Assembly: GCA_951406725.2 (NCBI GenBank)
Contig: OX597836.1
Span: forward strand, 39,742,001 to 39,806,000
Source: Octopus vulgaris
Taxonomy: Eukaryota
Direction: 5' to 3'
Length of the DNA: 64,000 nt
Below the pieces are notes generated by a model, which made no database searches, had not been told where the DNA came from, and was given only the letters and a program-made list of their open reading frames with translations. Made by a program: the position numbers and the translations under genes. Position 1 is the stretch's first letter; each line of letters starts with the position of its first letter. Positions 5,644-31,245 of the stretch are shown piece after piece.

Positions 5644-5690
5644 GCGTGTGTTGACAAGAGACAATAATCTCGAAACTGCAGTCCGTGCGT
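5644..5690 (+). ncRNA. Type I hammerhead ribozyme motif, U3-A8 core variant
   Basis: gcgtgtg-TTGACAA-gaga(caataa)tctc-GAAAC-tgca-GTC^-cgtgcgt: stems I, II and III all pair; stem III ACTGCAGT is palindromic. Confidence 0.8.
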
Positions 5691-5969
5691 ATCACTTAGG
5701 TTTTCGAGAGGGGATGACCTCCCTTTGCGAATATCATTAAAGAGCACAGTTTTGTGCCTAAAGCCAGCTGGAGACGATGATCTCCTGGGGCTAAAAAGCT
5801 ACAGTAACACCCCCACCCCTAGTGGTTAGCCATATTGAGATGGCTAGTATACTTTACGTTGTCGAGCGCTTACTGTTTACATCTCGCTCAGAGATTTATT
5901 ATTACTACTTAATTCGTTTAGAATTTAATATACCTTTGTAACCATAAATCGAACTTTTTGTCAAAACTT

Positions 5970-6830
5970 GCAGGTGTAGCGGTGTCGTAAGAAGTTAGCT
6001 TCCGAACAGATGGTTCCGGGTTCAATCCCACTACGTGTTACCTTTGGCAAGCGTCTTCTACAACAGTCCTAGGTCGCTCAAAGCCTTGTGAGTAGATTTG
6101 GTAGATGGAAACTGAAAGAGGCCCGTCGTACATATACATACATATATATACATATATGTGTATATATTGTACGATACAAAAAAGAAGATGACATTTCTAG
6201 AATGCGGCAATGCCGTTAGCACAACAGAAATATTGGGTAACTTACTCTTACAAAGCGGAAAAAATTATCAACAAGCAGCCATGGGACTCGAACCCGCAGT
6301 CCCAAGACTCTGGCTGAGTATTTTACCATTAAGCTAAACTGTCCGCTGACAAATTCATCAGCAGATGTTTGATTATATTCATAAACACACGCATGCGCAC
6401 ACACACATACACACACAAACGCATATATATATATATATATATATATAAACACACATATATATATATATATGTATATATACATACATACATTCATATATAA
6501 ATATATACACACATACGCACACATACATGCACTTATATATATATATATATATACGCACTTATATGTATATATATATATATATATGCATATATGTATCCAT
6601 GTGTGTGTCTTTGTGTTTGTGTTTGTCTCGAATCACCGATTCACAACCGGTGCTAGTTTGTTTACATCCCTGTAACTTAGCAGCTTAGCACAACGGAACC
6701 GATAGAAAGAGTACCAGATTTTTTTAAAAACAATAAATGAATACCGGCATCGATTCGTTCGACTAAAACTCGTCAAGGCGGTGCCCCAGCATGGCCGCAA
6801 TCCAATGACTGAAACAAGTAGAAGTATAAA
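5970..6830 (+). mobile_element. SINE family B, diverged, interrupted by an insertion in its internal microsatellite
   Basis: 5' half at 5970-6130 (ggttccgggttcaatcccact...ttggcaag) and 3' half at ~6600-6830, with unrelated sequence at ~6170-6385 between them. Confidence 0.8.
6275..6345 (-). mobile_element. tRNA-like fragment (pseudo-tRNA or SINE head) nested in SINE B
   Basis: Minus strand tagcttaatgg (A-box-like) ... ggttcgagtccc (B-box/T-loop); the acceptor stem does not close. Confidence 0.55.
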
Positions 6831-7177
6831 AGATACTTTAAAATGTCTAACAGCCGAGCACTGAGCAGTTTTTGCGTCATATATTTACACGAACAAAACA
6901 AATTTGTGATATTTTCATTTTCTGCATAATATATACGATCGTTTGATCTATGTTTTTTTATTGCTTGGGAATCACAAAAAAAAATTGCAGTCACAATTTT
7001 GGAAGTTTCAGCTAAATATTAATTTTATTATATTATTTTATTTTATGGCATTCAGTTCCTTTATATTCGTCTCGCATTGTTCTCTCTCGCCCCCCTCTCT
7101 CTCTCTCTCTCTCTCAATCTTTCTCTTTCTCTTTCTCTTACTCCCTCTATCTATATCTATCTCTGTCTATGTACATT

Positions 7178-7630
7178 TTTTTACTCTTTTTCTTGTTTCA
7201 ATCATTTGACTGCGGTCATGCTGGAGCACCGCCTTTAGTCGAGCAAATCGACCCCAGGACTTATTCTTTGTAAGTCTAGTACTTATTCTTTCGTTCTCTT
7301 TTGCCGAACCGCTAAGTTACGGGGACGTAAACACACCAGCGTCAGTTGTGAAGCGATGTTGGGGGGACAAGCACACAAACACAGAAACAGACACACATAC
7401 ACAAACACACACACACACGCACACACACATACATATATATATATATATATATATATATACATACATACGACATGCTTCTTTCAGTTTCCGTCCACCAAAT
7501 CCACTCACAAGGCATTGGTCGGCCCGAGGCTATAGTAGAAGACACTTGCCCAAGGTGCCAAGCAGAGGGACTGAACCCGGAACCATGTGGTTGGTAAGCA
7601 AGCTACTTACCACACAGCCACTCCTACGCC
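7178..7630 (-). mobile_element. SINE family B, full length
   Basis: Near-complete reverse complement of 55838-56278, including the internal (TA/TG)n tract. Confidence 0.92.
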
Positions 7631-8309
7631 TATACTGTACACACACACACACACACACACACACACACATATATATATATACATACATTCATATACATAT
7701 ATGTATGTATATATAATATATGGTTGTGTGTGTGTGTGTGAGCGCATAAGCGCATATATGGGCGGACGTATGTACGCCTTCATAAAATATATATGTATCT
7801 ATTTGCATCTATATCTGTGTATATATTGCTCGAACACAGGTACACATAATACATATACATATATGTGTGTGTGTGTGTGTGAATGTGTGTGTGCGAGTGT
7901 GTATATACATGTATATATCTATATATAAGGCCATCATATGTGCTTGTGGATGGATGTGGGCTGATGTTTATACGAGTGTGTGCAATTATGTCTGTTGTGT
8001 AAGCAGAGAAATTCAACTTAAGCAATATGCGGTTATGTGGCATGAGAAACATATACGTTCAGAAGAAATAACTGCCGTATGAGAAGTAGTTAAGACGTGC
8101 TGGCAGATCATAAACATACCGATACGTCTTAAGTTACAGACAAAGAGTTAGATACAGGTGGTGGTCTTAGTTGTGATGAGAGCGTTGGTGGAAGGGTTTG
8201 ACTACTCCCAGTTTGTGTTAGTCAGCTGATGATCTATTCTTGGAAATATTTTGAGGTTCCAAATTTACTTTCACCGACACGTAGCAGGGTATAGAAAATG
8301 GACCAAACG

Positions 8310-28884: not shown

Positions 28885-29230
28885 TCCACGGCATCTTGGG
28901 CAAGTGTCTTCTGCTATAGCCCCGGGCCGACCAATGCCTTGTGAGTGGATTTGGTAGACAGAAACTGAAAGAAGCCTGTCGTATATATGTATATATATAT
29001 ATGTATGTGTGTGTATGTGTTTGTATGTCTGTGTTTGTCCCCCTAGCATTGCTTGAAAACCGATGCTGGTGTGTTTACGTCCCCGTCACTTAGCGGTTCA
29101 GCAAAAGAGACCGATAGAATAAGTACTGGGCTTACAAAGAATAAGTCCCGGGGTCGATTTGCTCGACTAAAAGGCGGTGCTCCAGCATGGCCGCAGTCAA
29201 ATGACTGAAACAAGCAAAAGAGCAAAAGAG
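28885..29230 (+). mobile_element. SINE family B, 5'-truncated
   Basis: Family B core, internal microsatellite and tail. Confidence 0.9.
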
Positions 29231-29747
29231 TATATATATATATATATATATATATATATATATATATATATATATACATATATATATAAATATATATATA
29301 CATATATATATACATATATATATACATATATATACATATATACATATATATGTATGTATGCATGTATGTATGTATGTATGTATGTATGTATGTATGTATG
29401 TATGTATGTATGTATGTATGTATGTATGAATACACACATATCTTTAATGTTTAATCTTTGGCTGGGAAAACTTCAGCACGATCTTTCTTTCGTCTTTTCT
29501 CTCTTTCTCCTTTTCTTTTTTATTCTCATTTTTATTCAATTTTCGTCCTATTACAAATTACATTTTCCTCTATCTCTACATATATAATTCTTTTTTTTTT
29601 TCCTTTTAACATTTTCTTTTCTTTTATTTTATCATTTATTCTACAATTTCCCAAAAAAAACAACCTTATGTCTTCCGTTCAGTTCAGCCTCGACTTAACC
29701 AAGATTCTGTTATTGTTTCCTGTGACCTTGGAACGTTGATGCTATCT

Positions 29748-30090
29748 ACACACACAAACACACACACACACACACACACACACACACACACACACACACA
29801 CACACACACACACACACACACACACACACACACACACACACACACAAACACACACACATACAAACACACACACACACACACACACACACACACACACACA
29901 CACACACACACACACACACACATACATACAAACACACACACACACACATACAAACACACACACACATACAAACACACACACACACACACACACACACACA
30001 CACACACACACACACACACACACACACATACACACACACACACACACACATACAAACACACACACACACACACACACACACACACACACA
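29748..30090. repeat. (CA)n microsatellite, ~340 bp
   Basis: Directly visible. Confidence 0.97.
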
Positions 30091-30519
30091 ATAAGAAACA
30101 TGCAGAGATGCACATACATTCTATAGCCTAAAGATACAAAAACATAGACATTGTGTAATAATTACATTATCCCCAGTAGTTAATTTGATTCTAGTTCGCT
30201 ACCTCTCAGTAAAAGACTGATAACATCTAACAGCTAGTGGCGTGGAATTTACCAGATTCCATCAAACTCATCCTTAATTTCGCTCGAATATTAATATCCA
30301 TTCAACTGAAAATGGATAATATGGATATACAGTTTAAATCCTATTATAACTTATCCATGCAAGATTATAGTATATCACACCATATCACTTCACACTAGAC
30401 AATACTAAAACCATGGCGTAGCACATTACAGCAGAACATGGAATATCATATAACACCATATACTGTATATATATATATATATATATATATATATATATAT
30501 ATATATATATATATATATA

Positions 30520-31245
30520 TATATATTTGTAAAAAATGAAGTTCGAAAATGCTGCTGTATTATACAATTTTTAATTTTTATATATACATTATAACATGTT
30601 TCAGTTCCTGAAATGAACCTTATCAAAAAAAGTTATATATAAAAAAAGACAGCTCATGCCGTCAAACACAAGAAATTCATTTATAATACACAACGGAGTC
30701 AGACATCTTAGAGTTCATGTATAATTGATATATAGTTCATGTATAGTTGATATATAGTTTGAAGTATATGTTCAAAGTGTTCCACCCAGAGAACCACCCA
30801 GCGAACATCCACCATGGGTCATCACAATTGCTTAAGGTAAAAATGAATTCCTCGCTCTTTCGGAAACATCAATCTTCTGTATTGACCGCTTTCCACCACT
30901 TTGATCTGTTTTTTGTATTGAATACGTATCGCCACCGTGGGCCACTGCATCGAACACTTTGAACATATACTTCAAACTATATATCAACTATACATGAACT
31001 ATATATCAACTATACATGAACTCTAAGATGTCTGACTCCGTTGTGTATTATAAATGAATTTCTTGTGTTTGACGGCATGAGCTGTCTTTTTTTATATATA
31101 ACTTTTTTTGATAAGGTTCATTTCAGGAACTGAAACATGTTATAATGTATATATAAAAATTAAAAATTGTATAATACAGCAGCATTTTCGAACTTCATTT
31201 TTTACAAATATATACCTACTCGTATACGAGCTAATCCTATTATAA
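30520..31245. mobile_element. (TA)n-embedded Penelope-like remnant with ~260-bp near-perfect inverted arms
   Basis: Arms ~30520-30781 and 30953-31213 with a 171-bp spacer; each arm carries a hammerhead-like core TTGATAA-ggttc..gaact-GAAACATGT. Confidence 0.7.

Follow-up and report, generated by a model that had tools for sequence, protein, structure and literature searches.

Whether a hammerhead ribozyme core that departs from the CUGANGA consensus at both position 3 and position 8 is a decayed copy or a working alternative is the question raised by a 64,000-nucleotide (nt) stretch of the Octopus vulgaris genome (assembly GCA_951406725.2, contig OX597836.1, positions 39,742,001 to 39,806,000, forward strand; hereafter the window). 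The sequence-only reading of the window had reported three such cores, UUGACAA, AUGAAUA and UUGAUAA, each changed at positions 3 and 8 together with a Watson-Crick pair kept. All three were present (Table 1), and the joint change proved to be family-wide, as U3-A8 in family 1, A3-U8 in family 2 and U3-A8 in family 3. A fourth variant, G3-C8 at 28775 (family 4), was absent from that reading; positions 3 and 8 are Watson-Crick in all four variant families. In total, the window contains six motif-bearing repeats, namely two C-G, two U-A, one A-U and one G-C. Sequence comparison makes it quite probable that these hammerhead motifs sit in terminal repeats belonging to Penelope-like retroelements and in a non-coding tandem unit likely derived from them, and that selection keeps positions 3 and 8 paired for a cutting-ready fold.

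The variant cores are family-wide states

The genome (2.8 Gb, 227 contigs) was searched for copies of each site. The best 30 loci per site, chosen by likeness, were compared first and carried the core seen in the window, save for single-copy changes in family 1. Because these loci had been picked by likeness, core states were counted with exact patterns in which positions 3, 7 and 8 were left free; the counts are lower bounds, as diverged copies are missed. Family 1 gave 51 matches (48 U3-A8, 2 U3-G8, 1 C3-A8 and 0 C3-G8). Family 2 gave 247, the first 100 of which comprised 98 A3-U8, 1 G3-U8 and 1 U3-U8, and family 3 gave 591, with U3-A8 in each of the first 100. Family 4, the largest of the four variant families counted, gave 6,689 matches, with G3 in 6,497 and another letter in 192; the first 100 of the 6,689 were 95 G3-C8, 2 G3-U8 and one each of G3-G8, U3-C8 and C3-C8. 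A 71% sister of family 4 (locus L003) also carries G3-C8.

Post-insertion decay of a canonical core was rejected: C3-G8 was found in none of the 51 copies of family 1, none of the first 100 of 247 in family 2, none of the first 100 of 591 in family 3 and none of the first 100 non-G3 copies of family 4. The variant cores are family-wide states, not decay after insertion. A canonical C3-G8 family consensus, which the sequence-only reading had named as fatal to its claim, did not emerge among the copies counted, and the claim stands.

Architecture of the motifs

All three cores noted earlier have the type I layout of stem I, core, stem II, GAAA, palindromic stem III, NUH and stem I partner, as matched by a descriptor in which positions 3 and 8 were free. 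The three-way junction of stems I, II and III around the core is present, with stem III consisting of a short palindrome only and with a weak inner stem I in family 3. U4, G5 and A6, A9, G12, A13 and A14, the A15.1-U16.1 pair and NUH are present in the motifs, these being letters that the descriptor demands, and in place of the C3 and G8 letters of CUGANGA the families show U3-A8, A3-U8 or G3-C8. Position 17 in family 2 is U in the window copy and C in 32 of 36 aligned copies. In constrained dimer folds, the palindromic stem III pairs between two copies in six of seven families, not in family 3, and in family 4 for one of the two copies folded; this pairing fits the dimer model (PMC4209133; PMC6765202).

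As the earlier reading had anticipated, CUGANGA-based searches miss these motifs, and Rfam misses them too. Over the whole window Rfam gave 0 matches at the gathering score, and at the four variant sites it returned no hammerhead family at E values up to 10. At E 5 over the entire window, the best 150 of 447 rows held microsatellite-driven microRNA models only. The Rfam miss may stem from the minimal architecture as much as from the core.

Pairing of positions 3 and 8 across the genome and beyond

Forty evenly spaced 10-kb stretches of contigs 1-6 (400 kb) were scanned with the descriptor, positions 3 and 8 again free, and gave 12 matches: 8 C-G, 2 U-A and 2 unpaired. With the window added (464 kb), 15 of 17 matches were paired, a figure biased by the window, which was chosen for such motifs. 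When these 464 kb were shuffled 20 times, the mean was 1.8 matches per shuffle, and 12 of 36 matches were paired; the reversed sequence gave 0 matches, and four decoy boxes gave 1-3 each, none paired. Across the 973 kb examined, all 8 multi-copy clusters had a paired majority (3 C-G, 3 U-A, 1 A-U and 1 G-C; family 3 lies outside the descriptor), and the 3 unpaired singletons scored lowest among the 12 singletons.

An independent set consisted of 87 loci with relatives of the family 3 protein in public contigs of other samples; the closest homologous proteins (P0001-P0008) show 50-58% identity. At 28 of these 87 outside Penelope-like loci, 31 sense matches were found (24 C-G, 5 U-A, 1 G-C, 1 A-U and 0 unpaired), and the outside loci gave 3 antisense matches, all C-G. 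Each of the 7 non-C-G sense matches was paired (p = 5e-4 against the 1/3 paired share of the shuffles, a calculation that assumes independent matches, whereas relatedness leaves them only partly independent). Paired variants far outnumber unpaired ones among families, in the 973-kb clusters as in the 31 outside matches, which is the balance that the sequence-only reading had predicted. The near-absence of an unpaired 3-8 state suggests that the cutting-ready fold matters to the elements. Loci L196-L282 are Penelope-like reverse transcriptase (RT)-endonuclease elements from metagenome contigs and from 7 contigs filed as bacterial genome bins, probably eukaryotic DNA carried along.

An RT tree (LG+G4) was built from 31 proteins, 28 of them with a known core. 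It omits the near-duplicates L246, L270, L275 and L282, another copy of family 2, families 4 and 5, which have long branches, and 10 homologues whose core is not known. Several of the sequences are incomplete, and the run raised one warning about a long branch. Families 2 and 3, L076, L195 and one protein without a known core form one clade (96/98), with family 3 outermost. L076 is a U3-A8 family and L195 a second A3-U8 family, both from the octopus genome, both related to family 3 (57-58% protein identity range) and both with different stems; as judged from these sequences, the core state persists while the stems are rewritten. All four core-known families of the clade carry variant cores, and sites 2 and 3 therefore probably share one ancestral switch.

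The three cores had been described as independent and their elements as unrelated. Independence fails for sites 2 and 3, which fall in this one all-variant Penelope-like clade, while unrelatedness holds for the DNA of the repeats and gives way at the protein level, where families 2 and 3 are 55-59% identical in long matches. The closeness of the cores within 26 kb, also offered as a signal, reflects only the density of dispersed repeats.

On the tree, the core labels of the 28 RTs need 10 state changes, of which 7 link C-G with a variant. Their clustering does not exceed that of shuffled labels (129 of 200 as low), in keeping with frequent switching. Each of the two A-U cases adjoins U-A, one in the family 2/3 clade and the other as L245 with L214 (100/100), which suggests that A-U arises from U-A. 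In a quick tree, families 4 and 5 lie outside the family 2/3 clade on long branches, where their placement is unsure.

Penelope-like families 2, 3 and 4

Family 3 is young, its best 40 copies being identical over 192 nt. A full-length copy in L094 has two 592-nt direct terminal repeats that are 99.5% alike, with a U3-A8 motif in each; between them lie a 443-amino-acid (aa) frame and a stop-free 781-aa frame for RT plus GIY-YIG. Both domains (RVT_1, E 1e-6; GIY-YIG, E 2e-4) score just under the curated cut-offs. The 443-aa frame (L094 4031-5362, minus strand) is separate, precedes the RT frame, starts ~110 nt after the hammerhead and has internal repeats; it gave no Pfam match. In the contigs of four runs, no other letter was seen at the family 3 core among the best 40 of 51 rows. 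The search for runs with family 3 gave no RNA run among those listed, a result that says nothing either way on expression. Loose contig ends at L094 656 and 710 (runs X1, X15 and X16) point to a sister of family 3 that differs in the pair closing stem II and whose stem I arm is better paired.

In longer copies of family 2, fragments of RT and of GIY-YIG end ~310 nt ahead of the motif, and the GIY-YIG domain is above the curated Pfam cut-off. Longer copies of family 4 (L189, L191 and L193) have a C-terminal GIY-YIG-type frame, its motif recognised by eye, that ends ~990 nt before the motif; it gave no tblastn match to family 3 at E 1e-5. The CX2-5CxxC linker between RT and endonuclease, as named in PMC8557442, is present in families 2, 3 and 4, the trees being without named Neptune references. 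Inverted copies were found in families 2-4 and 5' truncation in all of them, features described for Penelope-like elements (PMC8557442). Two direct terminal repeats were not seen for families 2 and 4.

Many family 4 copies are only ~135-230 nt long and stand back to back with ~20 nt between pattern starts, so that both truncation and inversion are concentrated immediately 5' of the motif. At this point the longer copies have a pyrimidine run ending in CAG, which resembles a 3' splice site. The DNA upstream of the window copy matches another repeat over its first 120 nt only. A likeness of family 4 to the U3-A8 repeat of L022, L025 and L167, spotted by hand, was dropped, as BLAST gives it no support outside a microsatellite.

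Family 1, a non-coding tandem unit

Family 1 units stand head to tail with a 358-nt period, their motifs lying 357-358 nt apart in L029 and L030. The 5' ends vary, and there are two preferred 3' ends ~45 nt apart (in the window, at 5856-5862 and from 5903). Folded as a circle, the unit (43% GC) is better paired than its shuffles (z = -5.4, 60 shuffles).

In being non-coding, with one type I hammerhead and head-to-tail copies, family 1 resembles the animal non-LTR retrozymes (LTR, long terminal repeat) (PMC7229834; bioRxiv 10.64898/2026.07.22.740005), and its strongly self-paired circular fold is likewise that of a retrozyme (PMC7229834). Its size also lies within the retrozyme range of 170-400 nt, retrozymes being defined as non-coding units of that length whose head-to-tail repeats hold a type I hammerhead. 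Unlike non-LTR retrozymes, family 1 has a U3-A8 core, and in place of their long arrays it forms short insertions that are inverted and favour two 3' ends, as Penelope-like elements do; these 3' ends resemble the 'tail' described for Penelope-like insertions (PMC11167929). The loci examined yielded no RT as a partner of family 1. An RT frame beside family 1 in L100 was considered as the partner and rejected, since it is part of a different family whose own motif is C3-G8 with U4C. That Penelope-like family, at L100 1301-3244 (minus strand) and L103-L132, is very young, with 150 of 150 scored matches identical over 197 aa; its hammerhead combines C3-G8 with a C at position 4 and one additional letter ahead of GAAA, with 41 descriptor matches.

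Probable selection for a cutting-ready fold and its alternatives

The tertiary-stabilised hammerhead structure shows the 3-8 pair, which minimal ground-state crystals lack (PMC3884650). In the Poseidon hammerhead of Anolis, C3G or G8C alone abolishes cutting and the double change partly restores it (PMC11167929). Because the pair belongs to the active fold and a pair swap partly rescues cutting, the kept pairing most likely reflects selection on transposing lineages. Each core swap would have arisen once in a master lineage and then been copied; the palindromic stem III would allow two motifs in tandem to dimerise, folding would likely be assisted by the protein that the element encodes, as reported for the lizard element, and the predicted cut would release the unit from a longer transcript. 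Genomic copies would decay neutrally after insertion, which would account for the few unpaired single changes.

Several observations weigh against this explanation. Family 4 shows no sign of swapped sub-lineages: 90 of its first 100 non-G3 copies retain C8, and the 10 double changes among them comprise 5 Watson-Crick, 2 wobble and 3 unpaired states. At site 3, the inner stem I has two U-U mismatches next to the core, because of which the descriptor of the wider scans skips the site, and the unconstrained fold lacks stem II; an outer helix of ~12 pairs closes stem I there. No sense match was found at 59 of the 87 outside loci, where degenerate or unpaired cores may hide, and the partial dependence of the matches bears on the p-value given above. 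Poseidon cutting required the element's protein, in vitro insertion did not need cutting, and no RNA reads ended at the cut site (PMC11167929). Moreover, when one type III hammerhead was scanned by mutation, the G-C swap alone was rescued, other double changes remaining low (PMC9901934).

Part of this evidence bears on a different function, in which a compact 3-8-paired fold is selected for a non-cutting role such as RT recognition, translation or RNA stability, and the variants may cut poorly or not at all. Besides the findings on the lizard element, minimal Penelope hammerheads are weak cutters in vitro, and the authors leave other roles possible (PMC4209133); the youngest family of the window, family 3, has the weak inner stem I, and U4C is fixed in the highly copied family of L100 and L103-L132. 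On the other hand, the motifs contain G12, A13, A14, A15.1-U16.1 and NUH, in part because the descriptor requires them, and the 3-8 pair belongs to the active conformation (PMC3884650). We regard a non-cutting role as unlikely, though deserving of attention.

Drift in an AT-rich genome, fixed by founder copies and with pairing coincidental, is very improbable. It would accommodate the U3-A8 cores, since two transitions, both toward AT, lead from C3-G8 to U3-A8; a state shared by a whole family reveals the founder's core only, and the shared ancestry of sites 2 and 3 leaves fewer independent events than had been assumed. Drift should, however, favour one-step unpaired over two-step paired states, yet none of the 8 multi-copy clusters is unpaired in its majority and none of the 31 outside matches is unpaired. 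Furthermore, G3-C8 and A3-U8 are each two transversions from C3-G8, and the tree holds 7 switches between C-G and a variant. That the motifs are chance matches of a loose pattern in AT-rich DNA, as the short stems and the silence of Rfam even at E 10 might hint, can be set aside given the shuffle and decoy controls, the motif in both terminal repeats of the intact L094 element, the 31 sense against 3 antisense matches beside outside RT frames and an architecture like that of published minimal Penelope hammerheads (PMC4209133).

Beyond selection for a cutting-ready fold, a stronger claim is advanced only tentatively: the 3-8 pair of Penelope-like hammerheads may be freely exchangeable among the four Watson-Crick pairs, with many switches and never a fixed unpaired state, since cutting would be required in vivo and the element protein would lift the A-U and G-C penalty seen in protein-free ribozymes. 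If such free exchange is true, natural A3-U8 and G3-C8 families, one with thousands of copies, would have gone unreported, and a sizeable share of Penelope-like hammerheads (7 of the 31 outside matches) is invisible to CUGANGA searches. Penelope-like hammerheads cut weakly, and their cutting was not needed for in vitro insertion (PMC4209133; PMC11167929); an active-fold pair covarying across many lineages is evolutionary evidence that the fold is used. The young, intact U3-A8 element and the natural A-U and G-C families are ready test substrates.

Relation to known hammerheads

Natural C3-G8 to U3-A8 covariation was first reported in 2011 with 'several' examples (Perreault et al., PMC3088659); the core-variation section of that paper shares U3-A8 with families 1 and 3 and does not name A3-U8 or G3-C8. 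U3-A8 was also found in the Penelope-like hammerheads of Schistosoma mansoni Cercyon, with ~1,300 hits (Cervera and De la Pena 2014, PMC4209133). The octopus motifs share with these the terminal-repeat site, the short palindromic stem III, the dispersed truncated copies, the nearby opposite-strand pairs and U3-A8. The available text of PMC4209133 gives U3-A8 only, to which the octopus window adds family-wide A3-U8 and G3-C8; in the readable part of its supplement AUGA begins no word, and GUGA begins 4, all of them stems rather than cores.

Engineered C3G/G8C swaps restore part of the activity (PMC11167929, Poseidon of Anolis; PMC9901934; PMC8495972). G3-C8 is thus a laboratory mutant in those papers and here a natural state with ~6,500 genomic matches. 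Natural A3-U8 or G3-C8 families were not found in the open literature, covered as text and not figures and with several directly relevant papers outside the coverage; engineered swaps only were met, as in the available portions of PMC7936874, PMC8495972, PMC10085705, PMC13481778 and PMC13725137. The U3-A8 part is already known; what may be new are the families with A3-U8, the large one with G3-C8 and the four-way pattern seen across lineages. Counts of ribozymes that rely on CUGANGA or CYGANGA, as PMC8557442 and PMC13481778 still do, come out too low for these motifs, and claims that some element clades have no hammerheads merit a new search with positions 3 and 8 free.

Other features of the window and genome

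Microsatellites and dispersed repeats are abundant in the window, and a clear long coding frame is absent. The motif-bearing repeats are collected in Table 1.

Table 1. Hammerhead motifs and the repeats that carry them (window coordinates)
Feature	Position	Strand	Core	Details
Family 1, inverted, 5'-truncated copy	5008..5320	-	U3-A8, start 5215	own motif 5178-5222
Family 1 unit, 358-nt non-coding monomer	5546..5903	+		partial tandem copy just before, 5316-5545
Family 1 type I hammerhead motif	5644..5690	+	UUGACAA (U3-A8), 5651-5657	4-bp stem II; palindromic stem III; predicted cut after 5683 (GUC)
Canonical hammerhead-like motif, separate repeat	20457..20515	+	C3-G8, at 20463	copy in L065 likewise C3-G8
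Family 2 Penelope-like element, 3' fragment	22547..22907	-
Family 2 minimal hammerhead motif	22616..22650	-	AUGAAUA (A3-U8), 22645-22639	2-bp stem II; palindromic stem III
Family 4 element, 3' end	28755..28890	+
Family 4 hammerhead motif	28768..28818	+	G3-C8, 28775-28781	7-bp stem I; 5-bp stem II
Family 3, inverted copy of the end	30445..30782	-	U3-A8, start 30626	own motif 30586-30631
Family 3 Penelope-like element, 3' fragment	30790..31262	+
Family 3 hammerhead motif	31103..31148	+	UUGAUAA (U3-A8), 31108-31114	5-bp stem II closed by G-U; palindromic stem III; weak inner stem I
Canonical hammerhead-like motif, separate repeat	41703..41745	+	C3-G8, at 41707	copy in L098 likewise C3-G8

A further candidate motif at 1625 was set aside as probable chance, no other copy being present in the 1.0 Mb compared. 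Elsewhere in the genome, further U3-A8 repeat families occur at L022, L025 and L167 (3 matches) and at L105 (2 matches), and a C3-G8 family at L111, L142, L154, L156 and L181 has U at position 4 in some copies and C in others. A high-copy repeat of the window, in which the descriptor gave 0 hammerhead matches, has 184-nt and 217-nt periods and up to ~40 self-matches. It occupies 3674-4288, 16919-17353, 24562-25169 and 33318-34719, with further stretches at 44443-45436, 47003-48346 and 57590-58357.

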